DNA of 64,000 nucleotides from positions 3,495 through 67,494 of the forward strand of contig JBPYFR010000175.1 in assembly GCA_051985685.1 (NCBI GenBank). Reading direction: 5' to 3'. This stretch comes from Acidimicrobiales bacterium. Its GTDB lineage: Bacteria > Actinomycetota > Acidimicrobiia > Acidimicrobiales > RAAP-2. The notes under the pieces are model-generated. The model made no database searches. It was not told the origin of the DNA and was given only the letters and a program-made list of their open reading frames with translations. The position numbers and the translations under genes were made by a program. Shown one piece after another: positions 16,682 through 46,101 of this stretch (position 1 is the stretch's first letter; the number at the start of each line of letters is the position of its first letter).

Positions 16682-18118
16682 TCAGGCCCGGGTCGGCGCC
16701 GCCTCGACGAGGAACTGGTAGCCGAACATCGTGGGCCACAGATTGGACAGCAGGCGATCCATGAGCCGTACCGTGCGGGCCCGGGTGCCCTCGACACCGA
16801 GGGCGTCCAGGGGCAGCCCCACCGGCTCGATCCGCCGGATGGCGAAACCCTTGCGTTCGACCAGTTTGACCAGGCTGCGGCGGGTGAAGAACCTCAGGTG
16901 GGTCGAATCGAGGATGCCGCGCTGGTCGTAATCGAACATCCCGAGGGTCGAACGGAATCTCGGGTACCAGTGCGCGATGTTGGGCACGCAGAGCAGAGCC
17001 GTCCCGCTGGGCGACATGACCTCCCTGATCTGGCTCATCAGCGACCCGGGATTGAGCACGTGTTCAATGACGTCTGCCGCCAGAACGACGTCGAAGCCCG
17101 AGCCGACCTCCGACGGGATGCCTTCGTTGAGGTCAGCCTGCACGAAGGCGTCGGTGCGGTCTCGGACGCCGTCCAACTCGTTCACGTCGACGCCGGTGAC
17201 GTGGTGTCCCATCTGCCGGACGCGCTGTGCGAGCAGCCCGCTCGAGCACCCGAGATCGAGGACCCGGCTTTGAGGGCGACACTGCAGGACTTTCGAGATC
17301 CTGCCGTGTGAGCTGTCCTCGCTCGGCTTCAGCTGGTACTCCTCGCTGAGCGCGATGCCGCTCCCGTCGCCGAAGCCCGCCTTCTGAAGCCGGTAGGTGA
17401 CGACATCCTTCGTGACATCTGCCGCGTAGGCCAAGCCGTGGACATAGCAGATCTCGTCGCCGTAGTAGGTAGGGATGGGAACCTCGGCGATGCGCATTCC
17501 CGCGTCATGCATCTGGATGATGATCTGTGTGTCGAAATTGAACCCGTCCGTGTTCTCCTCGAACGGGAGCTGCTTGAGCGCGCTCACCGAGTACGCCCGG
17601 TAACCCGAGTGGAACTCGGACAGGTTCGTTCCGAGCGTCGCGTTCTCGAACCGAGAAAGGATTCGATTGCCCACGAACTTGTAGAGCGGCATGCCGCCGC
17701 GCCGGGCGGCACCTTTGATCATGGTGCGGGATCCGAAGACGGCGTCGGCTTCGTCCGACAGGAGCGGGCCGAGGATCTCGGGGAGCGACTCCGGCGCGTA
17801 CTGGCCGTCACCGTGCAGCATGACCACGATGTCGAGCCCGTGGTCGATTGCCAGCTTGTAGCCGGCCTTCTGGTTGCCGCCGTAACCAAGGTTGGTCGGC
17901 TGTCGGATCAGGGTGATCGGCAGATCGGACTGTTGCTGGTATCCAAGGCCCACCAGGTAGGTCGAGTCCTGGCTGTGATCGTCACTGACGATCACCTCTT
18001 CGATGTCAGGCCTGATCTCAGCCGGAATGCGGTCGAGCACCTTGGCCAGGGTCGACACAGCGTTGTACGCAACGACGAGGACCCCGATCTTCTTCTTCTT
18101 CGACCCGGTCACACTCAC
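16682..18118 (-). CDS. Bifunctional GT2 (DPM1/Ppm1-like polyprenol-phosphate glycosyltransferase type) and class I SAM methyltransferase
   Basis: N-terminus: GVLVVAYNAVSTLAKVLDRIP...VIVSDDHSQDST...NLGYGGNQKAGY...VVMLHGDGQYAPE. C-terminus: RVLDLGCSSGLLAQ...VVLAADVIEHVLNPGSLM...GTALLCVPN. Confidence 0.88.
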   Translation of the reverse strand: MSVTGSKKKKIGVLVVAYNAVSTLAKVLDRIPAEIRPDIEEVIVSDDHSQDSTYLVGLGYQQQSDLPITLIRQPTNLGYGGNQKAGYKLAIDHGLDIVVMLHGDGQYAPESLPEILGPLLSDEADAVFGSRTMIKGAARRGGMPLYKFVGNRILSRFENATLGTNLSEFHSGYRAYSVSALKQLPFEENTDGFNFDTQIIIQMHDAGMRIAEVPIPTYYGDEICYVHGLAYAADVTKDVVTYRLQKAGFGDGSGIALSEEYQLKPSEDSSHGRISKVLQCRPQSRVLDLGCSSGLLAQRVRQMGHHVTGVDVNELDGVRDRTDAFVQADLNEGIPSEVGSGFDVVLAADVIEHVLNPGSLMSQIREVMSPSGTALLCVPNIAHWYPRFRSTLGMFDYDQRGILDSTHLRFFTRRSLVKLVERKGFAIRRIEPVGLPLDALGVEGTRARTVRLMDRLLSNLWPTMFGYQFLVEAAPTRA

Positions 18119-18375: not shown

Positions 18376-18381
18376 CGTCGC

Positions 18382-30450: not shown

Positions 30451-31386
30451 CTACTCGTCATTCCAATTCTCGAGGTTGGCCAGGGAGATGCCCCTTGAAT
30501 GGGAGAAGACGGCGAACAGAACGACGAAGTTCCCGAGCGCTACGAACGAGATGATGAGCAGCCCGAGAAGCGTGGCCGTCGCCCAGCCGGGTATGGCCGT
30601 ACTCGTGAACAGGCGGATCCCGACGACCACCAGCGCGAGGGTGATAGCAAGGGCGAATATCGCGGAAAATGCGGTGAGTGCTCGTACGGCGATTCGGTCT
30701 ACGAACGGCATCAGCATCCGAACACCGTGCATGAACAGCCGAAACATGTTCATGTGAGATCGACCCGCGTACCTCTCGCCGCGAGGACAGGGCACTTGGG
30801 TGGTTGACACGTCCAGTCCGACGAGGGTCGATGAATAACAGAGATCGAAGTACGGATGGGTGAGCATTCGCTTGGCCAGCCAGCCGCGGTAGGCGGCATA
30901 GTTCCCGCTGCGTACCGTCGTTCCCGTCAGTGTGCGGAACATCGCTCGGAAGAAGAAGTAGAGGATCCTGAACCGCACGGACTCCTTTCGCTCCGTGCGC
31001 CGGGCGATGCACAGCATCCCACGGTCATCGGGCGTCGTGAGGAGCGGCTCGACGAGACGCGGAAGATCCTCGGGCCTGTCCTCCCCGTCCGAGTCCATCG
31101 TGACGATCAAATCTGTCTCGAGGACCTCCGGCAGTAGGACGCGCAGTCCGAACACGAGGGCTCGCTGGTGTCCCAGGTTGAAGGGAGGCGTGACCACCCG
31201 AACATCGCTGAACGCCTTTAGTTGCTCGATGTCGTGGTCGTAGCCGGCCGTGTCGTCGATCACCACGAAGTGAACGTCCGATGGGACTGCCACTTCTGCG
31301 CTCGCGACGACGTCCAGGACGTGAGCGCGCAATTGCACAAAGGACACCACGTCCCTGTAACAGGGGCACATCACCCACAGCCTCAT
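30451..31386 (-). CDS. GtrB/CsbB-like GT2 polyprenyl-phosphate glycosyltransferase with two C-terminal TM helices
   Basis: VVIDDTAGYD, PFNLGHQRALVFGL, VTMDSDGEDRPEDLPRL (DxD), and C-terminal helices LTAFSAIFALAITLALVVVGIRLF and ATLLGLLIISFVALGNFVVLFAVF. Confidence 0.8.
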   Translation of the reverse strand: MRLWVMCPCYRDVVSFVQLRAHVLDVVASAEVAVPSDVHFVVIDDTAGYDHDIEQLKAFSDVRVVTPPFNLGHQRALVFGLRVLLPEVLETDLIVTMDSDGEDRPEDLPRLVEPLLTTPDDRGMLCIARRTERKESVRFRILYFFFRAMFRTLTGTTVRSGNYAAYRGWLAKRMLTHPYFDLCYSSTLVGLDVSTTQVPCPRGERYAGRSHMNMFRLFMHGVRMLMPFVDRIAVRALTAFSAIFALAITLALVVVGIRLFTSTAIPGWATATLLGLLIISFVALGNFVVLFAVFSHSRGISLANLENWNDE

Positions 31387-31466: not shown

Positions 31467-33683
31467 TCAGAGGCCAGTTTTGCGAAACGGTTTCGGGCCT
31501 CGGACGCGCGTGAACAACCGTCGTCCCGCGCTGGGCCACCCCTGCTTCGAGGGTGGAGGAGTCCTTGAGGGGGCACGGGTCTGCCGCAGAGCCAGGAGCC
31601 CGATGTCGACGCGCGTGTCTCCCCAGTCACGCACCACCTCCTTCCGGAAGAGCTCGAGCCCGACCGCGGCGCACTCGTCGACGACATCGTGCAGGGAGCC
31701 GTGCGCGGGGAAGTCCTCGACCTCCACGCCGAGATTGAGGTTCCAAAGGTCGTCACCCCCACGCACGAGGTCGATGGTCAACACCACGAGACCACCAAGC
31801 CGCGTGTGGGCGGAGATGTCGGTGAGCAGTGCCCGCCGCGCGGTGGCTGGGACATGCTCGATCACGCTCACCGAGTAAACGCCGTCGAAGGGTGGCCAGG
31901 GCGGCACCTGGTGCAGGGTGCAATTCCACGATCGGTGGGCGAGTCCGACCGCGCCGTAGTCGAGGAAGTCCCACTCGTTCCAGTCCGGTTGTGGCGGCCA
32001 CGAGCGGATTGCGGGTGACGGATCGACCGTGTCCACTACGTAGCCTTGGCTGGTCAGGAACGGAGCCAAGGGAGTGACACCGGCGCCAACGTCGACGAGT
32101 CGACTGCCGGGCGGGAGATGCTCGGCGACCAGTCGGGCCACGACGGGGTATTCCCAGAGCCGGGGGGCGTGATCGGGGTAGAACCGTGTCGTGCCGAGTG
32201 CGTGGATGCGCAGGATGAGGAGCGACCAGGGATCCGGGTGCCGAAGGGCCAAAGGCGCCAGCGTGGCGGGTGGGAAATCGCGGGGGTGCTTGTTCTCCGG
32301 CGCCCGGAGCAGGACGAAGGTCGCCACAGAGCCCCGAGACTGCACCGGGTAGATCTCTGCATCCGGAGCGACCCGCTGCAGGGTGACCGAGAGCGGCTCA
32401 CCGGTGAACTCGAATCCGGCGTTGAGGCTGCCATGAAGATCTTCGTAGCCCCGGATCACGAGCGCATGACGGGTCGACCGCCAGAGCAGACCCAACAGGT
32501 CCCGATATCCCTCTGCGCCCATCGGAGAGATCAGCTGTCCGAGGCAGAGGACGAGGTCGGCTTCGTTCCCGTCCCGGGCCAGCGCACGCAGCGCCTCTTT
32601 TGTCGTGCCCATACTCGTGTACCGCTCGATCGCGGGGTGCCGATCCATGCCACTGTCGGCACCGACGTCGAGCACGGTTGCAGGCTCGACGGCATCGACG
32701 AGTGCGGCCACGATCGTCTGCACATCGTCGTCGATCGGCTCTGGTGGTAGCCCAGACAGCCACGCCCCAAAGGTGACCTCTGGTGCGGCATTCGTCCAGA
32801 CCTCGCGCACGGCGTCGTTGACGACACCGATCTGCTCGTCAATGGAGGCGGCTCCGGTGCTTCGGACCAGGCCGCGCCGATCAACCTCCCAGTGATAGTG
32901 GATGGCGGCCGGCCGGGGCGGATCGGGCGGAATCCGCGATGGGTCGTGCGTGGGCGTGTTCCATCGCACGTCGAGTGGGACGGATGTGACACCCTCGGCG
33001 GTCAGCGCCAGCGCCATCGCAACTTGGTCGACGTGGACGCTCCACTCCTCGAGCAATTCGGTTCCGTCGAGGAGCCAGCGGGCCCAGTGGGCCCAGGCGG
33101 TCGCCACCCGGGACAGCAGGGAACCTGGCACGAGATAGAGCCCGCCGTTGTTGTTGCCGGCCACGGTCCGTTGGTCGGGCCCCCAAGGCAGGGGCACGGT
33201 CGGCGGGGCCGTCAGGCCCGCAGCGGCGAAGACGTCGAGGAGGACGCCCAACGGCGGGAGGGGTGCATCTACCACCTTGCCGGCGACGGCGTCGGGAAGA
33301 AGGTCGATTCCGCGCGGATCCTCGAGCACCGCAACATCGGTGTCGCAGAGGATGGCCAGTCCGTCGATGCTGTCCTCGGCCAGGCGCAGGGCCCCTGCGA
33401 TCTTGTTGCAGTGGGGAGAACGGTTGTCAAAGGGATCGACAGGGCGCACATTGACTCCCTGAGACCTCAGGAAATCGAGGACCTCCGACGAGGTTGAGCC
33501 GACTGTGTGCACGACCAGATCACTCGGGTGGACACCCGCATTGGTGGTCAGGGAGGCGTACCACCGTAATGCCTCGAGGTGGAAGCGCGGATGGCCGTCG
33601 ACCACGCAGGCGAACCGTCCTCGGTACGAGCTCGTGTGACACGAGAGGAAGGTCGACGTCGCTCGACTGGTCTGCGCGGGCAA
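31467..33683 (-). CDS. Three-module protein: N-terminal GT-A (GT8-like) nucleotide-sugar transferase-like domain, a degenerate MTase-like segment, and a C-terminal class I SAM methyltransferase
   Basis: N-terminus: AILCDTDVAV (DxD), NNNGGLYLVP, IHYHWE. Middle: TVLDVGADSG...DLVLCLGQLI. C-terminus: RLVDVGAGVTPLAPFL...FDGVYSVSVIEHVPATARRALL...GGLVVLTID. TTG start at 33683 lies 4 nt after the upstream stop. Confidence 0.7.
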   Translation of the reverse strand: MPAQTSRATSTFLSCHTSSYRGRFACVVDGHPRFHLEALRWYASLTTNAGVHPSDLVVHTVGSTSSEVLDFLRSQGVNVRPVDPFDNRSPHCNKIAGALRLAEDSIDGLAILCDTDVAVLEDPRGIDLLPDAVAGKVVDAPLPPLGVLLDVFAAAGLTAPPTVPLPWGPDQRTVAGNNNGGLYLVPGSLLSRVATAWAHWARWLLDGTELLEEWSVHVDQVAMALALTAEGVTSVPLDVRWNTPTHDPSRIPPDPPRPAAIHYHWEVDRRGLVRSTGAASIDEQIGVVNDAVREVWTNAAPEVTFGAWLSGLPPEPIDDDVQTIVAALVDAVEPATVLDVGADSGMDRHPAIERYTSMGTTKEALRALARDGNEADLVLCLGQLISPMGAEGYRDLLGLLWRSTRHALVIRGYEDLHGSLNAGFEFTGEPLSVTLQRVAPDAEIYPVQSRGSVATFVLLRAPENKHPRDFPPATLAPLALRHPDPWSLLILRIHALGTTRFYPDHAPRLWEYPVVARLVAEHLPPGSRLVDVGAGVTPLAPFLTSQGYVVDTVDPSPAIRSWPPQPDWNEWDFLDYGAVGLAHRSWNCTLHQVPPWPPFDGVYSVSVIEHVPATARRALLTDISAHTRLGGLVVLTIDLVRGGDDLWNLNLGVEVEDFPAHGSLHDVVDECAAVGLELFRKEVVRDWGDTRVDIGLLALRQTRAPSRTPPPSKQGWPSAGRRLFTRVRGPKPFRKTGL

Positions 33684-33687
33684 GTCG

Positions 33688-35877
33688 TCAGTGGCCTTGG
33701 GTCAGGCTCCGGCACAACGTCATGGGTGCGCTCTCTGTCACGGCCCACTGCGCGACATAGTCCCTTGACGAGTGAACGGGGATGTTGGCGACGGTCACCG
33801 CGGGGGGTGCCGAGCCCGGCGATTGCGTGGTGGAAGTCACAACGGCTGGACCGTCACCGGCCACGTAGTGGTTGACCATGTTCGGAGAGCCGTACCACGA
33901 CACGACGAGTGAATTCAGGTTGGGGTCGATCGTCACGACCAGTTGAAGCTGCTCGTGGTTGCGAACTTCCGTGTCGGTGATGGGAAATGGCCATCCCGCG
34001 GGCGACGGCCAAGTCTTCGCGGAGATGCCCGAATTGTAGAGATCTAGTCGCACGAAATCAGGGTGGCCATTGACCCTGGCGCGTTCCACGACGAGCCTGC
34101 TCTTTCCGTAGGTCATGAGCGTCGCAGGTTGGGTGAGGTTGCGAGCTGGACGGTTGAAGGTGAACCCAATGACATGGGTGAACGCTGGGGATTGCTCGAC
34201 CGGCTTCCACGTGTAGTGCTCGTCGTATTGACCGGGAACGTACTTAATGGCGTTGCCGGTCGAAAGGTAGAGGCCCGAGCAGTGGTTCACGGCGAAGAGC
34301 TGCCCCGCCGGTCCCCAATAGGGAAGGCTGGGCCCTTGCCGCACGCTGTTCGCAAGGGAACCGATGCTCAGTGACTTCGCCACGGAGACGAACCGCGCGC
34401 TCTGGGCGACCGTCCACTGGGTTACGGGGAACGCGGCGATGGCTAGATTCGCCGCGATGCAGTAGACGCCAACCGTCGCGAGAGTGCCGAGGGCGAGGCC
34501 CCTGATCCGCTGAGGGCGGTTCTCCAGACGGCGCCACATGTCGATCAGGCCGATGCCGGCGGCGATGATGAACAAGGGCATCAGATCGGCCAAGTATCGC
34601 TGCGAGATGTATCCCCACAGCAACACCCCGCCGGCGCCCGCGGCGGCTCCGAAAAAGATGATCCGGGTCAGCTGCACCTGCCCGACGCCCCGCGGCCGGA
34701 AGGCGGTGACCGCACCCCATAGGCCGAGCAGGAGGAGCAGAGGGCTCGTGTCCGTGAAGCTCGCGGTCGGGTACGACTGGTCGAGCACCGCACCGGCGAG
34801 CCACGGCGCGGGACCCCCCGGCGGACTGAAGAACGGGAACAATCCTCCGAGACGCATGCCGAGGGGCTGGAAGTAAGCCGAAAGGCTGCTGGGCAGGAAT
34901 GCGAAATTGAATGCCTTCCCACCGTTGGCGGCCAGGAAGTAGCGGCGGTGGTAATTGACCTTGGCCCAGTACTCGTCGGCCATCGGAAGGCCGATCGGAA
35001 TGCCGAACTTGGCGTAGGTCACGACACAGCCAATGAGGAATGGGACGACGCCGACGGCCAGCATCGGTAAGGCCCAGCGCCTATTGGAGACGCCGCCCCG
35101 TCCCAGTGCGAACCATCCCGCGATGAGAACGGCTGCGATAGTGCAGCCCCAACCGGGCGGGATGCGGTTGAGACTTGTGCAGAGGATGAGCACGCCGCTG
35201 GCAACCACGCGTCCCCACGTCGGCCGTTCGAGAACGCCGAGGAGGGCGAAGAGGCTGCCGACGGTGAGCGCGATGCTCCACGCAAAGTCCTCGTTGTAGA
35301 TGAAGGGAGTTGCCGCCAGGTAAAGGACGACCGAACCACCCATGATGGTGGCCATGAGGGTCCCATAAGCCGCCGACTCCGCCCGTCCGAGCAACGCGTC
35401 TCCGCGCATGAGAAGACGGAGGCGCCAGAGCATCAATGAGCTGAAGACCGCGGTCGCAACCCAAGCCAGAAGGATGGAGGGTGCTGTCATCTGACCATCG
35501 AGCCTGCTCGTCACGAGCAGAATGGGCATCCGGATGATGGACGGGAACAAGCCGAAGTACGTGTAATCGTGTCCAGCGTGACGGAAGGCTTCGATACCCA
35601 TCCTCCCGGGAGGCAGGTAGAGGTGGCCATGAAACAGCGCTCTTGCCTGTAGGTCGTAGAAGTTGGCGTACGGGACGGCCCGCAACGGGTTCAACGACCC
35701 AGACCACAGGTCCCACTGCAGCCAGAGGAACAACGGCAGGGTGATTGCAGTGCCGACGATGACCGCGACGACGAATCGCCGTCGGCTCAGTTCGGCCGGC
35801 GACCGAAGGCGCGGTTGAGGCTCATCCGTCGGCAGCGCCTCGCCGGCGGACAGATCTGGTTCTGTTATGACCGCCAT
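33688..35877 (-). CDS. Polytopic membrane protein (roughly 12 TM by eye) with a roughly 230-aa C-terminal non-membrane domain; putative unclassified GT-C-like transferase, paralogue A
   Basis: NFYDLQARALFHGHLYLPPGRMGIEAFRHAGHDYTYFGLFPSIIRMPILLVTSRLDG, then many hydrophobic segments, with a hydrophilic C-terminus containing WGPAGQLFAVNHCSGLYLS. About 50 percent identical by eye to the product of 38925..41009. I do not recognise the family. Confidence 0.6.
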   Translation of the reverse strand: MAVITEPDLSAGEALPTDEPQPRLRSPAELSRRRFVVAVIVGTAITLPLFLWLQWDLWSGSLNPLRAVPYANFYDLQARALFHGHLYLPPGRMGIEAFRHAGHDYTYFGLFPSIIRMPILLVTSRLDGQMTAPSILLAWVATAVFSSLMLWRLRLLMRGDALLGRAESAAYGTLMATIMGGSVVLYLAATPFIYNEDFAWSIALTVGSLFALLGVLERPTWGRVVASGVLILCTSLNRIPPGWGCTIAAVLIAGWFALGRGGVSNRRWALPMLAVGVVPFLIGCVVTYAKFGIPIGLPMADEYWAKVNYHRRYFLAANGGKAFNFAFLPSSLSAYFQPLGMRLGGLFPFFSPPGGPAPWLAGAVLDQSYPTASFTDTSPLLLLLGLWGAVTAFRPRGVGQVQLTRIIFFGAAAGAGGVLLWGYISQRYLADLMPLFIIAAGIGLIDMWRRLENRPQRIRGLALGTLATVGVYCIAANLAIAAFPVTQWTVAQSARFVSVAKSLSIGSLANSVRQGPSLPYWGPAGQLFAVNHCSGLYLSTGNAIKYVPGQYDEHYTWKPVEQSPAFTHVIGFTFNRPARNLTQPATLMTYGKSRLVVERARVNGHPDFVRLDLYNSGISAKTWPSPAGWPFPITDTEVRNHEQLQLVVTIDPNLNSLVVSWYGSPNMVNHYVAGDGPAVVTSTTQSPGSAPPAVTVANIPVHSSRDYVAQWAVTESAPMTLCRSLTQGH

Positions 35878-35885
35878 GTCCCGCC

Positions 35886-36761
35886 CTAGCCTTGGGGGCC
35901 CTTTCGCTGGATGCGGTCGCGATACCCGAGGACCTTGCTGGCCAATTCATCGGAGATCCCGAGGTGCCGCTTGGCCCAGTCATAGCCTCGCAGAATCTGT
36001 TTGTCCGCGAAGATGAGGAATGAGCGCGCCCCATCGCCCGGTCGAGGTCGATACTCCGTTGAGCGGACCATCGGGTCCTTCTCGACGCTGAAGTAGTAGA
36101 GCGCCAGGGAACGCCGCATCACACCCTCCGGGCAGCGCATCGGCTCTGGATGGCCGTGGAAGGACGTGGGATCGGTCGTGAAGATCACAGCCCTGTTCTG
36201 GACCGGCCTGATCTTCTGGACGCACCGCTTCATGTCGGTGCTCCACAATTCGAGGTCGCCGCCGTACTCGGGATCCCAGTCATCGTTGAGGTAGAGGATG
36301 ATGTTGGCTCGACGCTGCCACGTCCGATTGTGGGGGTGGACGGTGAAGTCAGCGTGGATGTTGAGAAAGCCTCCCCTCGTCGACTGGTGGAGACCGCCGC
36401 CCTCGAGCGACGGATCAGCGATGAGATCGTCCTGGCCGAGAAGATTGCCGATGAAGCGCACGAAGCGGAGGGAGTTCAGCTCTTCGAGGATGCGTTGCAG
36501 GGTCGGACCCCAGGACGTTGGATCGGTGTTGCTGAACTTCCGCTCGTTGACGTGGAGGTAGTTGGTCCATCGCGCCGGGTCGAGAGTGGGAAACTCGGCG
36601 ATCGCGGCTTCTGCCGCACGCGGTTCGAGGAATTCGTCGATCACGATGTGGGGATAGGGGTCGGCCGCCTGGTATTCGGCATGCAAGTGCTCGACGTCGC
36701 GCTCCAATGCCGTCAAGTCGAGCACGGGCAACGGCATCTCGGTCTCTGGCTGGAGGGTCAT
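35886..36761 (-). CDS. 2-oxoglutarate/Fe(II)-dependent oxygenase superfamily protein
   Basis: GGFLNIHADF (HxD), ANIILYLNDDWDPEYGGDLELW, FHGHPEP (distal His), NRAVIFT. This is the pattern of 2OG-FeII_Oxy_3 / prolyl-hydroxylase-like domains. Confidence 0.8.
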   Translation of the reverse strand: MTLQPETEMPLPVLDLTALERDVEHLHAEYQAADPYPHIVIDEFLEPRAAEAAIAEFPTLDPARWTNYLHVNERKFSNTDPTSWGPTLQRILEELNSLRFVRFIGNLLGQDDLIADPSLEGGGLHQSTRGGFLNIHADFTVHPHNRTWQRRANIILYLNDDWDPEYGGDLELWSTDMKRCVQKIRPVQNRAVIFTTDPTSFHGHPEPMRCPEGVMRRSLALYYFSVEKDPMVRSTEYRPRPGDGARSFLIFADKQILRGYDWAKRHLGISDELASKVLGYRDRIQRKGPQG

Positions 36762-36803
36762 CTCGAGTTCGTCCCTCCAGGTGTCGTTACGGGCATCTGA
36801 GGA

Positions 36804-37841
36804 TTACCTCCCGACCGGGACTGGTGTCCGTCGCGCGCTGAAGCTGGCGATCAGGGCCCGAGTAAGGAAGAGGACATAGCCGTGCGAGAGAACTTCGGCG
36901 TGCCGAGTGAAGAGATCGGTCTGGCTCAGCCGGCGATGCAATTCCTTAAGACCCCGGTACGGGATGGTGGGAAGGACATGGTGCTCGAAGTGGTACTCCA
37001 TTCTGGCCCCCACGAGGTGATTTTGCAGCCAGCCGGCGTAGCTGGTCCGAGCGACCCAGTTCACTGAGTTCGGCTCACGAAGGCCCGTATCGTAGTGCTC
37101 GGCGATCGTCTTCAGACGAAGAATCATCGGGTACAAGCACACGATCGGCACGATCCAGAAGACCATGTAGAAGAGGATCCCCCGTAGAACCCCCTGAAAG
37201 AGAACGAACTGGCCGAGGACGATCACTTGGGTGATGACCTTGCCCGCGAGCAGCCGTGGTTTCGCGAGCAAGCTCGGAGGTGCACCAGATACCTGGGACG
37301 TGCCTGAGAGCCGCGTCGTTGCCCGCCGGAAGGCCGTCACCCCCAGGAGATCTTGTAGCAGGAGTACCGTCAGTGCACCACGTCGATATGGGACGAAGTA
37401 GAACACCCGATCCGGATCACGCTCCTGTCCCAGATAGCGATGGTGGAGGCGGTGGGTGGGACGGTATTCCTCGACGGAATTGATCGTCCAGAAGGCGATG
37501 CCCCAGTTGCAGATCCGGTCGTTCAGCGTCCGCGACTTGGCCAGCAAGCCGTGTGACCCTTCATGCAGGATCACGCCGTAGGCATTCATCCTCAGACCGA
37601 GCAAGAGGACCAACACCACCCCGATCGGTATCGACCAGGCCAAGGGCAAGCGAGGGAGGAGGTTGGCGCAGGTGAGGAGAACGGCCACTTCGAGCCACAA
37701 CACCCCGATTGCCGCGAACGTGTCGGGCAACGACTGCTGTGAAAGCGACTGGAGCTCGTCCGTGCCCACCAGTTGCGCGAGCTGCTCGCGCCAAAGACGT
37801 TCGTTGTCGAGCGAAGCCTCTTTCCCTGGTTGCAACGCCAT
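36804..37841 (-). CDS. Membrane fatty-acid desaturase/hydroxylase family di-iron protein
   Basis: Three His boxes: HEGSH, HRLHH and HFEHH, plus hydrophobic helices. ATG 37841 is preceded by GGGAGGG; TTG 37862 is the alternative start. Confidence 0.85.
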   Translation of the reverse strand: MALQPGKEASLDNERLWREQLAQLVGTDELQSLSQQSLPDTFAAIGVLWLEVAVLLTCANLLPRLPLAWSIPIGVVLVLLLGLRMNAYGVILHEGSHGLLAKSRTLNDRICNWGIAFWTINSVEEYRPTHRLHHRYLGQERDPDRVFYFVPYRRGALTVLLLQDLLGVTAFRRATTRLSGTSQVSGAPPSLLAKPRLLAGKVITQVIVLGQFVLFQGVLRGILFYMVFWIVPIVCLYPMILRLKTIAEHYDTGLREPNSVNWVARTSYAGWLQNHLVGARMEYHFEHHVLPTIPYRGLKELHRRLSQTDLFTRHAEVLSHGYVLFLTRALIASFSARRTPVPVGR

Positions 37842-37924
37842 CGCCCGAGGCCCTCCCCCCAACCGAATCCACCGAATGTACAGTACCCGTCAAACGACAA
37901 TCAATCGGGCAAAGGACCAGCGTA

Positions 37925-38914
37925 GTGGAGTCGCCACCGAGCGCAGATGCAGGGACTCGCCCCGCTCAGGGCGTGGCGGACGGGGACGGAGCTGAGGCAA
38001 GACGCTGCCCGATCTGTGGCTCCGCCACCACGTGGCTCTACCGGACCGACGTCGCTGATCTGGAGTACTTCGTCGTCCCGCCCCGCCCGTTCGCCATGCA
38101 GAAGTGCGGGGACTGTTCATCGGAGTTCCTGACGCCACGTCCTCTCGAATCGGAGCTCCCTCCCTTCTATCCGAGCGATTACCACGCCTACAACGAGAAC
38201 CACAGTGGAGTCGCCCGGCTCCTGGTGCAGTTCCGGGCCCGGTCCCGGGCCCGGTTCTATGGTCGCCTCATCGGGAGCCGTTCCGGCCGAATCTTCGACG
38301 TCGGGACCGGCGATTGCCGCCACTTCGACGAGCTTCGCCGCTTTCTCGACCTCGAGTGCGCAGGTGTGGAGATCCAGTCGGACGTCGCCGCCAAGGGGAG
38401 GGCGAGGGGATACGACGTCCTGGAGGGCACCCTCGAGACAGCGGACTTGACCGATCATGCGGGACGATACGACATCGTCTCCATGAATCACATCCTCGAA
38501 CATGTGGTCTCACCCCGCACCATGCTCGAACGCGCCTTCGATCTCCTGCGGCCCGGTGGACACGTCATCGGCCAGTTGCCCACTGTCTCGTCCTGGGAGA
38601 ACAAGTTGTTTGGCCACAATTGGGGTGGCTACCACTACCCGCGGCACCTGCAAATCCCATCAAAGGCCGGTCTGAAGGGCCTTCTCGAAGACGTTGGATT
38701 CTCCTCGATCAGCGTGCGGTCGGCGCCCCACATCCAGACGACGATCTCGTTGCAGAACACGCTTGTTCGGCGCGGCTGGCATCCCGAGATGCGCAATGGC
38801 AAGACGCCGGCTTACGGCGCGCTCCTCGTCGCCGCGCTTCCTTACGAAACGGTCGCGTGGCTGTGCGACGAAGGCGGTATCGTCAACTTCCGAGCCCAAA
38901 AGGGCAGTTCCTGA
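37925..38914 (+). CDS. Class I SAM-dependent methyltransferase with an N-terminal Cys4 zinc-ribbon
   Basis: Part of ORF 37709..38914. CPICGS...CGDCSS, then IFDVGTGDCRHF, YDIVSMNHILEHVVSPRTML, GGHVIGQLP. The start is uncertain (GTG 37925 or 37973), because the long ORF would overlap the divergent desaturase gene. Confidence 0.8.
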   Translation: MESPPSADAGTRPAQGVADGDGAEARRCPICGSATTWLYRTDVADLEYFVVPPRPFAMQKCGDCSSEFLTPRPLESELPPFYPSDYHAYNENHSGVARLLVQFRARSRARFYGRLIGSRSGRIFDVGTGDCRHFDELRRFLDLECAGVEIQSDVAAKGRARGYDVLEGTLETADLTDHAGRYDIVSMNHILEHVVSPRTMLERAFDLLRPGGHVIGQLPTVSSWENKLFGHNWGGYHYPRHLQIPSKAGLKGLLEDVGFSSISVRSAPHIQTTISLQNTLVRRGWHPEMRNGKTPAYGALLVAALPYETVAWLCDEGGIVNFRAQKGSS

Positions 38915-38924
38915 CCCGCTTCGC

Positions 38925-41009
38925 TCAGTGAATCAGGCTTTCACAGAGGGCCGGACGCGGTGAGTGCTCCTGGCTCACCTGCAGAGCCCTTGGTGTGCCT
39001 TGGGACGCTGTCGTGGTGGAAGCAACCCGGATCGGTTCCTCGTTTGTCATCGTGGTCGCCAAGAGCGTCACTCCGTCGATGCTCGCTGCGAACTGGTGCT
39101 TGACCGCATCCGTCGTCACTGTCACCGTATGCGCGCTCCGGGAGTCGACCTCGTATGAGATGCCGCCGGCGAGGGGGCTGGCTCCGCGGTAGAGGCTGAA
39201 CGTCAACGAGACCCGATGTGGATCCGTCGTCGGCGCCGCGTTCATGCGCAACGTGTCCTGGCCAGCATTCACCAGTGGAACCGACGCCACCCCTGCGGTC
39301 GGGCTCTTCACCGTTATGTGGAAATCGTGCTGGAACGCTGGACCAAGTTGGACGGTCATCCAAGTTGTGCGCTGGAACTGCTCGCTCGGTACGGTCGAAT
39401 AGTTCTCCCCGTTCGACACGTACAGCCCATCGCAGTCTCCGACGACGTACAACTGTCCGGCCGGCCCCCAGGGAGGCAGTGCGCTCGCACGTACCACCTT
39501 CGCCTGCAACGGGTGCCCGGTGAGATCGCTCACGCTCTTTTGGCCCTCGACATAGTTGAGGACTTGCGTCGTGGTCCACTCCTCGTTGGGGGCGACTGCC
39601 ATCCCGACGTTTGCCGCGATGCTGAAGACGGCCCCCACCGTCAGGATGCCCACGGCCGCCGCGCGCACCGAACGCCGCCGCCCTTCCAGACGACGGAAGA
39701 TGTCGGCCGTCGCCACCGCACTGGCCAGCACGATGAACGGCACGAAATCACCCAGGTACCTCGGCGAGATGTAGCCCCACAGCATCAGGGCGGCGGCGGC
39801 GCCCCCAGCGGCCAACAGCAGCAGGCGCGTGCGCGCAACCTGTCCGACCGCCCGGGGACGAAAGGCCGTCACGAGGCCCCAGGCGCTCAGCAGGAAGAGC
39901 AGCGGCGTCGAAGCCGGAAGGCTTGCCGTCCGGTACAGCCGGTCGAAGAGCACGCCACCAACCGCCGTGGGTGGGCTTGCAGGCAGGGTGATGAACGGAA
40001 AGACGCGGCTGAAGCTGAGCCCATCAGGACGAAAGTAGGTGACGAGGTTGGTCGGCACGAAGATGACGCCTTCCTCGGCATTGTGGTTGGCGGCTAGGAA
40101 CCTCTGTCGATAGGCGTTCATGTGCGTCCAGACCTGCTCGGCGTTCGAGACCCCGAACAGGACACCGAATTTGGCGTAATTGACGGCGCACGAGATGACC
40201 ACGGGTATAAGGCCTGCCGCAAAGACAGGGACGAACCAGCGGCGATTGTCTCGCCCACCAAGGCCGAACAGGAACCACACCGAAATCAGGCCGGCGGCCA
40301 CGGCACAGGCCCAGCCCGTGGTTGCGCGGTCGAAGTTGGCACACAAAATCAGCACGCCGCTGGCTACCACCCGGCCCCACGACGGCCGCTCGACCACGCC
40401 GAGGAGGGCGAAGATGCTCCCCAGAGTCAGGCAGATGCTCCACGCGATGTCCTCGTTGAAGACGAAGGGAGTTGCTGCGAGCAGCATCCAGATCGTCCCG
40501 CCCATCACCGTGGCTATCAGGACTCCGAACCCAGCGGCCTCCATTCTGCTCATGGGGGAGTCGCCGCGAACGAGGAACCGAACTCGCCACAGCAGCAGGG
40601 ACGAGAACAAACCTGTCAACAACCAGGCCAGCAGTATGTATGGCGCGTTGAGCTTGCCATCCAGGCTGCTGGTCACCAGGAGCACCGGCATCCGGATGAT
40701 CGATGGAAACAGGCCGAAGTACGTGTACGTGTGCCCGCCGTGCACGAATCCCTCGAGGCCGATGGCTCCGTTGGCCAGATACAGATGGCCATGGAACATG
40801 GCGCGGGCCTGAATATCGAAGAAGTTGCCTTCGTAGGCGGTGGCGCGCACCGCAGAGGTGGGGCCCCAATCCGACCAGAGGATCCAGACGAAGGGAACGG
40901 CGGTGAGGCCGATGGCGATCAGCGCAGCCCAGGTGAATCGACGTCGGCCAGCGTCGATCTCCGACCGCGGCGGGGCTTCCTCGATCGTTGCGGTGTCCGG
41001 CGCAGACAT
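38925..41009 (-). CDS. Polytopic membrane protein with a C-terminal non-membrane domain; putative unclassified GT-C-like transferase, paralogue B
   Basis: ORF 38925..41132. GNFFDIQARAMFHGHLYLANGAIGLEGFVHGGHTYTYFGLFPSIIRMPVLLVTSSLDG and C-terminal WGPAGQLYVVGDCDGLYVS. ATG 41009 (MSAPDTAT) gives an N-terminal length matching paralogue A; GTG 41132 is the alternative start. Confidence 0.6.
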   Translation of the reverse strand: MSAPDTATIEEAPPRSEIDAGRRRFTWAALIAIGLTAVPFVWILWSDWGPTSAVRATAYEGNFFDIQARAMFHGHLYLANGAIGLEGFVHGGHTYTYFGLFPSIIRMPVLLVTSSLDGKLNAPYILLAWLLTGLFSSLLLWRVRFLVRGDSPMSRMEAAGFGVLIATVMGGTIWMLLAATPFVFNEDIAWSICLTLGSIFALLGVVERPSWGRVVASGVLILCANFDRATTGWACAVAAGLISVWFLFGLGGRDNRRWFVPVFAAGLIPVVISCAVNYAKFGVLFGVSNAEQVWTHMNAYRQRFLAANHNAEEGVIFVPTNLVTYFRPDGLSFSRVFPFITLPASPPTAVGGVLFDRLYRTASLPASTPLLFLLSAWGLVTAFRPRAVGQVARTRLLLLAAGGAAAALMLWGYISPRYLGDFVPFIVLASAVATADIFRRLEGRRRSVRAAAVGILTVGAVFSIAANVGMAVAPNEEWTTTQVLNYVEGQKSVSDLTGHPLQAKVVRASALPPWGPAGQLYVVGDCDGLYVSNGENYSTVPSEQFQRTTWMTVQLGPAFQHDFHITVKSPTAGVASVPLVNAGQDTLRMNAAPTTDPHRVSLTFSLYRGASPLAGGISYEVDSRSAHTVTVTTDAVKHQFAASIDGVTLLATTMTNEEPIRVASTTTASQGTPRALQVSQEHSPRPALCESLIH

Positions 41010-41215
41010 AGCGCGTTCGATCGAGGCGTCCGAACTCCCCTTGGGGGGAGCAACTTGAACGGAACTGCCAGTACCCTCCCCCACGGCGCAGGAGTGTAGC
41101 GAAATGGAGTCCATCCCAACGATCGCCACCACCCTGGCCGTGACGCCTCGAAATGGGGTTTGCCGATGACACGCGCCGGGGCGGTGTCGCTGCTCACGGA
41201 GTAGCCTCTCGCGCC

Positions 41216-41719
41216 ATGAAGACAGCCCTGGTCCGGCTGTGGCGCCGTTGTCAGACCCCCCAGGGATTGAAGCTCATCCGCTACTCGATGGTGTCGGTGA
41301 TCTCCGCGCTGACCTCGCTGGTGATCCTGACCATCATCTTTGGGGTGCTGCGTCTGTGGGGCGAGGTCGTGAGCACCCTCGTCGCGAACATCCTGGCGGG
41401 CATTCCGTCTTACTATCTCAACAGGCAGTGGGTGTGGAAGAAGTCGGGGCGGTCCCATATCTGGAGAGAGCTGCTCCCGTTCTGGGTGATGTCGATAACC
41501 GGCATCCTTTTCGCACTCTTCACGGCCTCGTTGGCGCGCAACTTCGCGAACACACACCATCTGGAGCATTTGGCCCGCACCGTCCTGGTCGTGGGAGCCA
41601 ACATCACCGCCTTCGGCATCCTGTGGGTTCTCAAGTTCCTCATCCTCAATCGGCTGTTCGCAGAGATCGCCGACGCCGAGGTCGGGGCTGAAGAGCCGGA
41701 GACCGCTGACAACCGTTAA
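41216..41719 (+). CDS. GtrA-family small membrane protein (putative polyprenyl-phosphate-sugar flippase)
   Basis: Part of ORF 41153..41719. LIRYSMVSVISALTSLVILTIIFGVL...VANILAGIPSYYLNRQWVWKK, four TM segments, 167 aa. Confidence 0.85.
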   Translation: MKTALVRLWRRCQTPQGLKLIRYSMVSVISALTSLVILTIIFGVLRLWGEVVSTLVANILAGIPSYYLNRQWVWKKSGRSHIWRELLPFWVMSITGILFALFTASLARNFANTHHLEHLARTVLVVGANITAFGILWVLKFLILNRLFAEIADAEVGAEEPETADNR

Positions 41720-41749: not shown

Positions 41750-44191
41750 ATGGCGATGACGAATTCAGCCATTCGGACCGACCTGTCCGACGACGTCTCC
41801 AACGCGACGACCCATGACGATGAGCTCGGGCCGACGACGTCGACCGCAACGACGGCATGGTGGGTGCACCTCGTCGCCGTGCTCTGGACAGTCGTCCTAG
41901 CTGGACTGAGCCTGGCTCCGGCGCTCGCGCGCGGTTCGATGATCGGCACTTACGACCTGTTTGCGGGCGGTGGTCTCACGTTCCGTCCCGGCGTGGTGGT
42001 GCACGGAAGCTATCAAAATACGGATCTCATTTACCAGATCATGCAGTGGACCACGCTGAGTTGGAGCCAGGTCCACCATGGCTTTCTACCCCTCTGGAAC
42101 CCCTACAACGGGTTGGGGCTCCCGCTGGCGTTCAACTGGCAGTCAGGCAGCTTCGGCGTTCCCTCGCTGATCGGCTATCTCCTCCCTGTCCGATACGCCT
42201 TTACGGCGGGTGTCCTGGCCACGCTGATCATCGCCGGCACGGGGGCCTATGTCCTCGCTCGCACGCTCCGTCTGGGATTGCTCGGCTCGATCATGGTGGC
42301 GACTGTCTTCGAATTGGGCGGGCCCCTCATGGGTTGGCTCGGCTACCCGCACGCACAGGTTCTTGCGTGGAGTGGCTGGCTGTTCGCAGCCGGCATGCTC
42401 ATCCTGCGGGGCAACCGTCGGATGCCAGCGATCGCTCTCTTCGCAGTTGTCTTCGCATGCGCAATCTATGCCGGCCAACCGGAGGTTTTGATCCTTGTCA
42501 TAGGGGCCACGGCGATCTTCCTCATCGTGCTTCTTGCGTTGCGTGCCATGCCGACCCACATGGGGTTTGGGTCGGGACCCATTCGCCGTCCGGTCATCGA
42601 CCTCACCGTCGCGGCCCTGGCGGGTCTGGGCCTGGGTGCACCACTTCTCATCCCCGGGCTACAACTGACCAACGCGTCCGTTCGGGCAGCGTCGATGCAA
42701 AATTCGGCCCTGCCGGCGCATGATCTGACGCATCTCATCTTCTCAAGCTTCGATGGAGTATCGGTACCGGGCAGTTTCGCCTTCGGTTATTCCTACTTCT
42801 ACGGTGAGACGGCCGCGTACGTCGGCATCATCGCAGCCGTATTGGCCACGGTTGCCGTGGTGTTGGGCGTGCGACGACGGCGGCCCGAGGTGATTGCCAC
42901 GACTGCAGTCGTCGTCGTGATGGGTGTTCTCGTGTTCGTGGGACCCGTTGACAACGTTGTCTACAAGCTGCCTCTGATCGGGCAGGCGTCCTTGCTGCGA
43001 GGGTTGATGCCGCTCAGTTTGGGTCTCGCGGTCCTTGCCGGCGCCGGGTTGGACGCAGTCGCGCGGACGCGGCGATCACGCGCAGTTCCGCTCGTGCTGG
43101 TGTGCGCATTCGGGGCGGCGGCGCTGCTGCTTGCGGGCCTCTGGGTGTTCGGGCGGGGCGGGGGGTTCTTCGGGCTCCCATCCGGAGAACTTCTTGCATT
43201 CGCCCATCACGTTCGGGCCGAGAGCTTCGTGTGGCCGTTGGTCTGCGTGGCAGTCGGCTTGGCCGGTGGCGTGCTTCTCTTGTGGCGCTTCAGTCTCCGA
43301 TTCTTTGTGGCGGGGTCTCTCCTGCTCTGCGAGACGTTGTTTCTTCTTCCGGCAGGCTCCGATCAGATCGCATCGAGCGCGAACGGCTACCCTCCTACGG
43401 CGGCCGTATCGCAACTCCAACGTTCGGTCGGCAGCGCGACCGTGGGGACGGGCACGGGCTGCAACCTTGGGATTGCACCCGAGGGGAACATCGAGTTTGG
43501 AGTGCACGAGGTCAATCTGTACGACCCCATCGTGCCAAAGACGTACTTCACTGCCTGGGAGCACACCACCGGGACCTCTGCGGGATTGCCTTTCTTCAAC
43601 CTCTTTTGTCCCGCGATCACAACCGCCGCAGCCGCTCGCTTTCTTGGCGTCGGGTACGTGCTCGTGGCGCCGGCGACGCACGCCCCGTCGGGCGCCGTCT
43701 TCGTGAGGGAGCTGAGCGTCCCGCCTCCCCGTAAGGCCGCCAAAGCTGAAGGGGCAACGTCACAGAGTGAGGACCTGTACCGAATACCTGGGTCTGCGAG
43801 AGCCACGCTCATTCCGGTTCGACCCCACGGGCCACTGCCGCCACCAGACGCGCCCGGCGTGCCCGTGCCGATCAGCGACGCAAATCCAGCCAAATGGTCG
43901 CTCGTGACCCATGCTTCGACCCCGGTGGTTCTCCGGCTTCATCTCGCCGACGTACCTGGGTGGCACGCCACGATTGACGGACGACCGCTTCAGCTCCAGA
44001 GCCTGTCCGGTTTCATGTTCCAGGCCCGTGTTCCGTCGGGGCGTCATGTCATTCAACTTCACTACTGGCCTACTGCGTTCACCATTGGCCTCATCATTGC
44101 ATTGGTCACGTTCTTGGCCTTGGCTTTGGCTCTGGGTGCACACGTCTGGCGACGGCGAACTCGAAGAGGTGCGACTCACAGCACCACGTGA
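41750..44191 (+). CDS. YfhO-family membrane glycosyltransferase (GT-C), paralogue 4
   Basis: NTDLIYQIMQWTTLSWSQVHHGFLPLWNPYNGLGLPLAFNWQSGSFGVPSLIGYLLP and C-terminal LRLHLADVPGWHATIDGRPLQLQSLSGFMFQARVPSGRHVIQLHYWP. Confidence 0.8.
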   Translation: MAMTNSAIRTDLSDDVSNATTHDDELGPTTSTATTAWWVHLVAVLWTVVLAGLSLAPALARGSMIGTYDLFAGGGLTFRPGVVVHGSYQNTDLIYQIMQWTTLSWSQVHHGFLPLWNPYNGLGLPLAFNWQSGSFGVPSLIGYLLPVRYAFTAGVLATLIIAGTGAYVLARTLRLGLLGSIMVATVFELGGPLMGWLGYPHAQVLAWSGWLFAAGMLILRGNRRMPAIALFAVVFACAIYAGQPEVLILVIGATAIFLIVLLALRAMPTHMGFGSGPIRRPVIDLTVAALAGLGLGAPLLIPGLQLTNASVRAASMQNSALPAHDLTHLIFSSFDGVSVPGSFAFGYSYFYGETAAYVGIIAAVLATVAVVLGVRRRRPEVIATTAVVVVMGVLVFVGPVDNVVYKLPLIGQASLLRGLMPLSLGLAVLAGAGLDAVARTRRSRAVPLVLVCAFGAAALLLAGLWVFGRGGGFFGLPSGELLAFAHHVRAESFVWPLVCVAVGLAGGVLLLWRFSLRFFVAGSLLLCETLFLLPAGSDQIASSANGYPPTAAVSQLQRSVGSATVGTGTGCNLGIAPEGNIEFGVHEVNLYDPIVPKTYFTAWEHTTGTSAGLPFFNLFCPAITTAAAARFLGVGYVLVAPATHAPSGAVFVRELSVPPPRKAAKAEGATSQSEDLYRIPGSARATLIPVRPHGPLPPPDAPGVPVPISDANPAKWSLVTHASTPVVLRLHLADVPGWHATIDGRPLQLQSLSGFMFQARVPSGRHVIQLHYWPTAFTIGLIIALVTFLALALALGAHVWRRRTRRGATHSTT

Positions 44192-46044: not shown

Positions 46045-46101
46045 CTGTGTGGACTGCCGGGGGGCGCTTCTTCGGGCGGCGCGTGAGAGATACTGTCCCG
46101 C

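Follow-up and report, generated by a model that had tools for sequence, protein, structure and literature searches.

What might two large membrane proteins of no named family be doing on either side of a set of modification enzymes in an actinobacterial genome? The question arises from a 64,000-nucleotide, GC-rich (62-72%) stretch of DNA, hereafter the window, from an Acidimicrobiales bacterium (GenBank assembly GCA_051985685.1, contig JBPYFR010000175.1, positions 3,495 to 67,494). The two proteins, which we call ProtA and ProtB, are encoded by the following open reading frames (ORFs); the coordinates and minus-strand orientation given for both in a preliminary description of this DNA, made from the sequence alone, agree with the ORF listing.

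33688..35877, minus strand: ProtA, 729 amino acids from an ATG start; a protein of predicted GT-C glycosyltransferase fold with 11 transmembrane (TM) helices, A clade, with a C-terminal beta-sandwich (ORF list, AlphaFold2 model, Foldseek).
38925..41132, minus strand: ProtB, up to 735 amino acids from a GTG; paralogue of predicted GT-C fold, B clade (ORF list, AlphaFold2 model, Foldseek).

Based on the evidence set out below, we believe that ProtA and ProtB are probably anciently diverged members of an unnamed GT-C glycosyltransferase family, acting outwards as the transferases of a 'three-component' glycan-decoration system of GtrA, glycosyltransferase family 2 (GT2) and GT-C proteins. Most likely, they decorate a surface glycan outside the membrane.

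That the two proteins are true paralogues is clear from a likeness far beyond chance, as BLASTP aligns them over 706 residues with 43% identity and 59% positives (545 bits, E = 0). The paralogy had been recognised in the preliminary description and stands, but its estimate of about 50% identity was too high. Identity is unevenly spread: it is highest in the first outer loop (65%), stands at 51.5% in the membrane domain and drops to 29% in the C-terminal domain. The shared motifs that had been picked out by eye are all present in the BLASTP alignment, namely the first-loop motif (ANFYDLQARALFHGHLYL / GNFFDIQARAMFHGHLYL) and its continuation (YTYFGLFPSIIRMP(I/V)LLVTS), the internal motif ATPF(I/V)(Y/F)NED(F/I)AWSI, the C-terminal-domain motif WGPAGQL(F/Y)(A/V)V..C.GLY(L/V)S and the common ending LC(R/E)SL. 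The layout then proposed, a hydrophobic core followed by a hydrophilic C-terminal domain, is borne out by the structural models with a domain of about 220-250 residues, and the modification cassette said to lie between the paralogues is real, since Pfam identifies there a 2-oxoglutarate (2OG)-Fe(II) oxygenase, an FA_desaturase-like protein and an S-adenosylmethionine (SAM)-dependent methyltransferase. The start of ProtB is ambiguous, the candidates being GTG 41132, GTG 41084 and ATG 41009. We favour a start near 41084 because the N-termini of ProtB homologues align from about residue 17, which corresponds to that GTG; a start at GTG 41132 would leave just 20 bp before the divergent GtrA start. 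Translation is likely to begin at 41084 or 41009.

Does the fold of these proteins point to a function? The core of GT-C enzymes is defined by its helix arrangement, an essential Asp on a two-helix first long loop and a long gate loop between two distal TM helices (PMC10265970). We built AlphaFold2 models of the two proteins independently from different alignments, that of ProtA from 27 sequences (predicted local distance difference test, pLDDT, 72; predicted template-modelling score, pTM, 0.66) and that of ProtB from 62 sequences of both clades (pLDDT 84, pTM 0.84). Each model has 11 TM helices and ends in a beta-sandwich, and its first outer loop is built of two helices. In the ProtB model this loop (residues 87-161) holds helices 104-113 and 142-153 plus a beta-hairpin, and the loop between TM7 and TM8 (323-409) carries short helices at 334-348 and 356-366, in a region whose ProtA equivalent has a pLDDT <50. 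The helix arrangement and the two-helix first loop with a conserved Asp/Glu, both features of the GT-C core, are thus present in the models. Searched against the PDB with Foldseek, the ProtA model matches PglB (6gxc, E 3e-5), STT3, AftA, DPY19, ArnT, ALG9 and EmbA/B with a probability of 1.00, and the ProtB model matches AftA (E 6e-5, 765 aligned columns), STT3, DPY19, PglB and EmbA/B/C. GT-C enzymes from at least six families are the top matches of the membrane domain, with a probability of 1.00 and E values of 3e-5 to 1e-3. No family with another role, such as a transporter, was identified in the comparison; chains of the major facilitator superfamily (MFS) and of H+-pyrophosphatases stand lower in the Foldseek lists, with template-modelling scores (TM-scores) of 0.08-0.14 and probabilities <0.75. 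These comparisons support a predicted GT-C fold for the family, from which we infer an enzymatic activity. The earlier suggestion of a new GT-C clade is upheld at the level of fold, by Foldseek searches with two models, and by topology and gene context; of the wording 'GT-C glycosyltransferases or polymerases', the GT-C fold stands and the polymerase gained no specific support.

The C-terminal regions of the models are beta-rich domains:

38967..39494, minus strand: C-terminal beta-sandwich of ProtB, residues ~547-722; a lectin/ConA-like putative carbohydrate-binding module (CBM) (model, Foldseek).
33778..34341, minus strand: C-terminal beta-rich domain of ProtA, residues ~513-700 (secondary structure of the model).

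Local Foldseek matches of the ProtB domain are the carbohydrate-recognition domains of galectins, CBM66 and polysaccharide lyases of family PL7, with target-normalised TM-scores of 0.4-0.5 and a probability of 1.0.

An outward-acting transferase would be expected to present its conserved residues outside the cell. A positive-inside count on the modelled helices gives 16-18 Lys plus Arg in the short cytoplasmic loops versus 2 in the short outer loops. Because positive charges concentrate in the short cytoplasmic loops, we place the FYD-x-Q-x-R and (N)ED motifs outside, together with the soluble domain, in a predicted N-in/C-out topology. The outward orientation proposed earlier for the FYD/FFD and NED motifs is therefore corroborated, and the cytoplasmic placement that had been named as counter-evidence was not seen. 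Fusion of an N-terminal Acyl_transf_3 domain to some family members, described below, would be consistent with the N-in orientation. The motifs concerned lie as follows:

35641..35661, minus strand: ProtA motif F73-Y-D75-L-Q77-A-R79 in the first outer loop; candidate catalytic Asp with its D-x3-R partner.
40803..40823, minus strand: first-outer-loop motif of ProtB, F104-F-D106-I-Q108-A-R110, where loop helix H104-113 of the model begins.
35287..35292, minus strand: ProtA residues E196-D197 of the NED motif, on the short outer loop joining TM3 to TM4 (column counts, positive-inside count).
40449..40454, minus strand: ProtB counterpart of the NED motif, E227-D228; neither residue varies in the alignment of 62 sequences.

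The pattern [FY][FY][DE]xQxR is found in 62/62 aligned A and B sequences. Conservation across the wider family was counted by column, in ProtA numbering, from 150 representatives. Five residues are kept without exception or nearly so: Q77 (118/118), E96 (121/121), R116 (124/124), W200 (141/141) and E196 (140/141). R427 is kept in 136/137 representatives and C533 in 121/122, and position 75 is D/E in 115/118 and position 431 D/E in 131/137. Given the N-in/C-out topology, the family-wide invariant polar residues all lie outside or at the outer interface. The equivalent loop helix of AftA carries a catalytic Asp, D128, which R132 stabilises (PMC10265970), and the D-x3-R spacing of D75/R79 in ProtA and D106/R110 in ProtB is that of D128/R132. 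By analogy, D75 and D106 may be the catalytic residues. C533 of ProtA and its ProtB counterpart C567 are invariant and C722/C730 are at least 90% conserved, a pattern that suggests a disulfide linking C533/C567 with C722/C730 in the extracytoplasmic domain.

Could ProtA and ProtB nonetheless belong to a family that already has a name? No Pfam family matches ProtA at E up to 0.01, no NCBIfam family matches either protein, and no PDB chain sequence was matched at E up to 10, either by phmmer with a single sequence or by profile hmmsearch. Across 27 family members scanned against Pfam at E up to 10, there was no recurrent family and no transporter match. A match of ProtB to DUF6056 (PF19528; 15.3 bits, E 0.0087) lies below the 27-bit gathering threshold, occurs in 1/27 members and was not used. 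A divergent YfhO (PF09586) was rejected, there being no Pfam match and an hhalign probability of 1% against the window's four YfhO paralogues, as was a PMT_2/ArnT-like protein (PF13231; GT83/GT39), for which there was no Pfam match at E up to 10 and hhalign gave 0.6% against the window's PMT_2 protein. Nor could the proteins be assigned by sequence to AftA (GT85) or Emb (GT53), as no AftA_N, AftA_C or Arabinose_trans match was found in Pfam and the PDB profile search was null. The WWD[YWFN]G signature of STT3/PglB (GT66) is confined to 2/62 sequences and there to the end of TM1; the C-terminal domains of ProtA and ProtB lack it. Wzy/O-antigen ligase (PF04932) was set aside because there was no Wzy_C match in ProtA, in ProtB or in the 27-member scan; a faint, sub-threshold Wzy_C match (E 0.007) was seen in one fused family member. 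The earlier statement that no named family could be assigned thus holds for Pfam, NCBIfam and PDB sequence searches alike. At the level of sequence the family is new and set apart from YfhO, PMT_2/ArnT, AftA, Emb, STT3/PglB and Wzy. In the literature, we found no description of the ProtA/ProtB family and no paper tying GT-C to Acidimicrobiia.

How large is this family and which organisms carry it? Word-seeded searches returned 875 relatives for ProtA and 941 for ProtB, the best 120 relatives of ProtB being 59-99% identical to it; among the matches listed, the relatives have no Pfam domain and the named ones are called 'hypothetical protein', bar one 'MnhB'. An exhaustive profile search, which covered 1.84 billion 50%-identity representatives, found at least 2,126 50%-identity clusters (E <= 1e-3), of which 759 passed E <= 1e-30. 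When one genome per species was scanned with a pattern, 224 matches were confirmed, and 78 loci were retrieved for counts of gene context. Nearly all of the 78 come from metagenome-assembled genomes (MAGs) labelled Acidimicrobiales, Acidimicrobiaceae or 'Actinomycetes', one record being labelled Acidobacteriota, and the named members of distant clusters are Ilumatobacteraceae or Actinomycetota MAGs (cluster look-up). The survey of taxa advised in the preliminary description therefore leads to uncultured Acidimicrobiales/Actinomycetota MAGs for all taxon-labelled members, with the one labelled Acidobacteriota. Distant members, found by the cluster look-up and by a search seeded with P0265, are called only 'hypothetical protein', with one 'MFS family permease' and one 'MnhB'; we regard these two labels, each on a single member, as mis-annotations.

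Identity is 53-91% within the A or B clade and 37-48% between the clades; judged by this divergence, the A/B duplication is old. Both types of gene are found together, within ±10 kb, in 41/78 loci. Since many relatives match the profile only over positions ~30-548, the C-terminal domain is variable and the conserved unit is the membrane domain with the start of the C-terminal region. In four representatives an N-terminal Acyl_transf_3 domain is fused to the family, and in P0264, of 2,175 amino acids, an AftD GT-C domain and an F5/8-type C domain (a CBM) are joined to it. These Acyl_transf_3 and AftD/F5/8 fusions tie the family to the modification of extracytoplasmic glycans. The fusion proteins P0176, P0186, P0204, P0234 and P0415, from other metagenomes, are ~1,050-1,130 amino acids long, most of them with an N-terminal Acyl_transf_3 domain; P0264 carries two GT-C modules on one polypeptide.

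Which partners would such enzymes work with? The genes that surround ProtA and ProtB, and the two candidate donor synthases of the window, are these:

35886..36761, minus strand: 2OG-Fe(II) oxygenase, prolyl-hydroxylase-like (Pfam 2OG-FeII_Oxy_3, E 1.6e-18), directly upstream of ProtA across an 8-bp gap.
36804..37862, minus strand: FA_desaturase-like membrane di-iron enzyme (Pfam, E 9.5e-30).
37709..38914, plus strand: SAM-dependent methyltransferase (Pfam Methyltransf_23, E 1.8e-19).
41153..41719, plus strand: GtrA-family small membrane protein, a putative polyprenyl-phosphate-sugar flippase (Pfam GtrA_DPMS_TM, E 3.4e-12), divergent from ProtB.
31467..33683, minus strand: 738-amino-acid cytoplasmic protein directly downstream of ProtA, with Methyltransf_23 at residues 514-664.
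30451..31386, minus strand: GT2 with C-terminal TM helices (Pfam Glycos_transf_2); GtrB/ArnC/PpgS-like candidate polyprenyl-phosphate sugar synthase.
16682..18118, minus strand: GT2-methyltransferase fusion (Pfam, NCBIfam), AglJ/PpgS/Dol-P-hexose-transferase-like; second candidate lipid-sugar donor synthase.

The genes next to ProtA and ProtB form a module that recurs in the canonical order FADS< MT> ProtB< / GtrA> oxygenase> ProtA> MT738>, where arrowheads give the direction of each gene. The window shares its gene order with four of the retrieved loci (L002, L004, L007 and L009), and the same module is seen in L079 by independent gene calls. In 58/78 loci the 2OG oxygenase has a homologue within 10 kb, and 43/79 A-type genes have one directly upstream on the same strand. 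The corresponding figures for GtrA are 50/78 loci and, divergent and within 700 bp, 35/56 B-type genes. The 738-amino-acid methyltransferase protein has a homologue within 10 kb in 36/78 loci, directly downstream in 21, and the FA_desaturase-like enzyme and the cassette methyltransferase have homologues in 20/78 and 19/78, respectively. A gene of the GT2 donor-synthase type is found in 28/78 loci. Homologues of the GT2-methyltransferase fusion lie within 10 kb in 22/78, six of them in the order GT2-MT> 2OG-oxygenase> ProtA>; in L081, where the family member is a distant one fused to Acyl_transf_3, the GT2-methyltransferase gene (6526-7992(+)) directly precedes it, and the oxygenase adjoins the GT2-methyltransferase gene. 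The recurrence of this fusion suggests that methylation takes place at the stage of the lipid-linked sugar. The window itself encodes the full three-component set, in GT2 (30451-31386), GtrA (41153-41719) and ProtA/ProtB, and we infer that these proteins work together.

Some details of the partners deserve mention. The nearest PDB sequences of the oxygenase are OGFOD1 and PHD/P4H, which are weak matches (best E 3.6e-7 over ~60 residues). The GT2 at 30451-31386 has a hydrophobic C-terminus in translation and weak NCBIfam matches to ArnC and PpgS, below the cut-offs, and for the FA_desaturase-like protein the best NCBIfam match, to the arginine hydroxylase GntB, falls well short of the cut-off. 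In its longest ORF, the cassette methyltransferase (37709-38914) overlaps the FA_desaturase-like gene by ~150 bp; since the L079 homologue has 334 amino acids, the true start is probably later, near 37900 (~334 amino acids). The N-terminal 350 residues of the 738-amino-acid protein have no Pfam match at E up to 10; by eye, this part contains a DxD-like 'CDTDVAV' and a SAM-motif-like 'VLDVGADSG', and the protein may, to judge from these motifs, be a GT-A plus double-methyltransferase. In L079 (positions 1-2103; an Acidimicrobiaceae MAG), an IS21-type transposase pair (rve/Mu-transposase C and IstB) is separated by ~2 kb from the module's GtrA end.

Beyond the module, the window encodes further membrane enzymes:

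19927-22404(+), 25338-27905(+), 27902-30271(-) and 41750-44191(+): YfhO-family GT-C paralogues of 42-47% mutual identity.
22457-23716(-) and 23957-25291(+): Acyl_transf_3 (OafA/OatA-type) membrane acyltransferases, a divergent pair between YfhO paralogues.
45973-46045, plus strand: tRNA-Arg(CCT), immediately upstream of a 543-amino-acid PMT_2-family GT-C gene at 46102-47733(+).

The locus thus holds seven GT-C-type proteins, four YfhO, one PMT_2, ProtA and ProtB. Genes for a DegT aminotransferase and a GNAT protein are also present. Because the window contains four YfhO, a PMT_2, two Acyl_transf_3, GT2s, GtrA and a DegT aminotransferase, we read it as an envelope-glycan locus. Its YfhO proteins form a divergent subgroup, as each matches the YfhO model of Pfam over just the model's final 60-80 residues. 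Homologues of one or other Acyl_transf_3 protein occur within 10 kb of a family gene in 12/78 and 26/78 loci. The PMT_2 protein has a homologue in 0/78 related loci, and for this reason the tRNA-Arg/PMT_2 flank is placed outside the conserved module. A 497-amino-acid ORF at 18349-19842(+), with a twin-arginine-like signal (SRRQLLGASLGLVG), has no Pfam or NCBIfam match, and its homologues lie within 10 kb in 6/78 loci.

Based on these observations, we propose the following model. A cytoplasmic GT2 (30451-31386, or the GT2-methyltransferase at 16682-18118) would make a polyprenyl-phosphate-sugar, which the co-conserved methyltransferases might methylate and the 2OG oxygenase oxidise; we tentatively assign the methyltransferases to the tailoring of the donor sugar. 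GtrA would carry the lipid-linked sugar across the membrane, and ProtA and ProtB would each transfer sugar to a cell-envelope glycan. Their active site would lie at the outer membrane face, built from the helices of the first long outer loop with (F/Y)(F/Y)-D-x-Q-x-R, from the E of (N)E(D) after TM3 and from the conserved W-G-Y-x3-R-Y-x2-D segment after TM9. The variable, lectin-like C-terminal beta-sandwich would hold the acceptor and so set acceptor specificity. The two paralogues could serve different residues or linkages, or could form a heterodimer like EmbA/EmbB or Pmt1/Pmt2. We propose a glycan as the acceptor because the C-terminal domain is lectin-like and the family is fused to glycan-modifying domains. 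What the analysis shows is paralogy, family size, topology, fold similarity, synteny and motif conservation; the lipid-linked donor, the glycan acceptor, the catalytic role of D75/D106 and any pairing of A with B are proposed.

Several observations weigh against this model. No sequence-level tie to any GT-C family emerged from Pfam at E up to 10, NCBIfam or the PDB searches, and hhalign against YfhO and PMT_2 gave probabilities of 1% or less. The global TM-scores of the Foldseek matches to GT-C enzymes are modest (0.31-0.43), with root-mean-square deviations of 10-19 Å. D75 is equated with the known catalytic Asp by its loop position only, and D197 of the NED motif is kept in only 74/141 representatives. 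As to partners, GtrA of the window runs in the same direction as a YfhO gene, whose product it may for that reason serve instead, a GtrB-like GT2 lies near the family gene in a minority of loci only, and no known three-component system has a role for the strongly co-conserved prolyl-hydroxylase-like oxygenase. Finally, the family is known from sequences and models alone, every taxon-labelled member coming from an uncultured organism.

The oxygenase bears on the first alternative, which takes ProtA and ProtB for protein glycosyltransferases of GT-C fold (PMT/OST/DPY19-like, OST being oligosaccharyltransferase) acting on exported proteins, on residues perhaps first hydroxylated by the adjacent enzyme; such a system would be a bacterial route of hydroxyproline or hydroxy-amino-acid O-glycosylation. 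Among the top Foldseek matches, PglB, STT3 and DPY19 are protein-modifying GT-C enzymes, but the best match of the better model is the glycan-priming AftA. The nearest solved relatives of the oxygenase are the protein prolyl hydroxylases OGFOD1, PHD and P4H, and it is the tightest-linked neighbour, kept even beside a distant member as well as upstream of just over half of the A-type genes; against this, the likeness to prolyl hydroxylases is weak and short, and enzymes of this kind have many non-protein substrates. Given that the C-terminal domain resembles lectins and CBMs, that the fusion partners (Acyl_transf_3, AftD with F5/8) are glycan-modifying, that the WWDYG signature of OST is absent from the C-terminal domain, that Pfam scans found no PMT/MIR or TPR domain, and that the module encodes no candidate acceptor protein, we consider protein glycosylation unlikely. 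We would give a similarly slim chance to a more elaborate possibility, in which GtrA, the oxygenase, ProtA/ProtB and the methyltransferases form an undescribed envelope-glycosylation pathway, with tailoring of the lipid-sugar or hydroxylation of the acceptor followed by transfer by an obligate A/B heterodimeric GT-C. If true, the chemistry of donor or acceptor would be new, perhaps an O-glycosylation of hydroxy-amino acids, and would go beyond another side-chain glucosylation system.

Alternatively, the two proteins might be glycan polymerases or ligases (Wzy/WaaL-like, or processive like Emb) that use polyprenyl-diphosphate-linked repeat units and not single side-chain sugars. They are large and polytopic with big outer loops, they lie in a polysaccharide locus, the arabinan-elongating EmbA/B/C are among their structural matches, and one member has the faint, below-cut-off Wzy_C match noted above. 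Yet Pfam scans at E up to 10 give no Wzy_C/O-antigen ligase match for the window proteins or the 27 scanned sequences, and the best 50 Foldseek matches of each search include no structure of WaaL, Wzy or SEDS. The linkage to GtrA, moreover, fits single-sugar transfer better, as GtrA goes with monophosphate-sugar carriers in three-component systems (PMC7389260). We think a polymerase or ligase quite improbable. That the proteins are no glycosyltransferases at all, being transporters, flippases or structural membrane proteins whose helical bundle is superficially GT-C-like, is very unlikely indeed: the modest TM-scores to GT-C enzymes, the presence of MFS and H+-pyrophosphatase chains further down the Foldseek lists and the 'MFS family permease' and 'MnhB' labels of single members would allow it, but those chains score only ~0.1 (0.08-0.14) with low probabilities against 1.00 for GT-C, the invariant D75, Q77, E96, R116, E196, W200 and R427 lie in outer loops and not mid-membrane, and a lectin-like outer domain and a GT-C-type two-helix loop 1 are foreign to transporters.

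Returning to ProtA and ProtB as glycan-decorating GT-C enzymes, what are their closest known counterparts? By structure, the best Foldseek match of the ProtB model is AftA (GT85, PDB 8IF8), the mycobacterial galactan-priming arabinofuranosyltransferase, which is likewise actinobacterial. AftA combines a GT-C membrane domain with a soluble periplasmic C-terminal domain, as ProtA and ProtB are predicted to do, and has an Asp on the first-loop helix with an Arg four residues on (D128/R132, to be compared with D75/R79 and D106/R110). From a polyprenyl-monophosphate donor it transfers its sugar to a glycan, and by analogy we propose the same for ProtA and ProtB. In contrast, AftA has 13 TM helices, two of them extra at the N-terminus, versus 11, and its C-terminal domain is an alpha/beta sandwich whereas ours are predicted to be all-beta and lectin-like. 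There is no detectable sequence likeness, and the gene context differs, as the ProtA/ProtB locus lacks genes of the decaprenylphosphoryl-arabinose (DPA) pathway.

PglB/STT3 (GT66) is the other structural neighbour, PglB 6gxc being the best Foldseek match of the ProtA model (E 3e-5). Like the two proteins, PglB has acidic residues in the first outer loop (D56) and in the loop after TM3 (D154/D156). It differs in having 13 TM helices, a diphosphate-linked donor and a peptide acceptor, shows no sequence likeness, and carries the WWDYG that the C-terminal domain of ProtA and ProtB lacks. As pairs of GT-C paralogues, ProtA and ProtB recall EmbA/EmbB/EmbC (GT53) and Pmt1/Pmt2 (GT39), which work as (hetero)dimers. 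Emb proteins also have C-terminal carbohydrate-binding domains and are among the Foldseek matches, but they are larger (~1,050-1,100 amino acids, 15 TM helices), and neither Emb nor Pmt has sequence likeness to our proteins.

By gene content, the counterparts are three-component systems. The mycobacterial PpgS (Rv3631)/Rv3632/Rv3779 system comprises a GT2 polyprenyl-phosphate-sugar synthase without TM helices, a GtrA-like protein and a GT-C that decorates arabinogalactan; it is not known to have oxygenase or methyltransferase partners. The GT2 proteins of the window match the NCBIfam PpgS model weakly, far below its cut-off. More generally, three-component systems consist of a GT2 lipid-sugar synthase, a GtrA-type putative flippase and a GT-C, and serve in the decoration of O-antigens and teichoic acids and in pentofuranose decoration (PMC7389260, PMC11127046). 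The ProtA/ProtB locus follows the same logic as GtrA/GtrB/GtrX, CsbB/GtcA/YfhO and the PPPRS/MATE/GT136 system of Citrobacter, whose GT136 protein ORF12 likewise has 11 TM helices, with a helical domain following TM1 and a beta-rich CBM at the C-terminus (PMC11127046). ProtA and ProtB are not YfhO (hhalign 1%), and their likeness to GtrX and GT136 is one of system logic and, for GT136, of architecture. Their module further differs by adding a 2OG oxygenase, one or two methyltransferase proteins and often an FA_desaturase-like enzyme, and by keeping two paralogous GT-Cs together.

What, then, does this locus add? GT-C families and three-component systems are already established, and what we describe is a family new in sequence that belongs to a familiar class of enzymes. 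Experiments on it are made difficult by the fact that the taxon-labelled members all come from uncultured organisms. The Acidimicrobiia are abundant, mostly uncultured actinobacteria of soil and water whose cell envelopes are essentially uncharacterised, and at least 2,126 clusters of 'hypothetical' membrane proteins lie outside the current coverage of Pfam and NCBIfam. For these, the predicted GT-C fold, the candidate active site (D75, Q77, R79, E96, E196 and R427) and the set of partners make a usable annotation. If activity is shown, the family would be a candidate for a new CAZy family, for which GT136 set the precedent in 2024. Only the tight linkage to the prolyl-hydroxylase-like oxygenase holds out a prospect of new chemistry.

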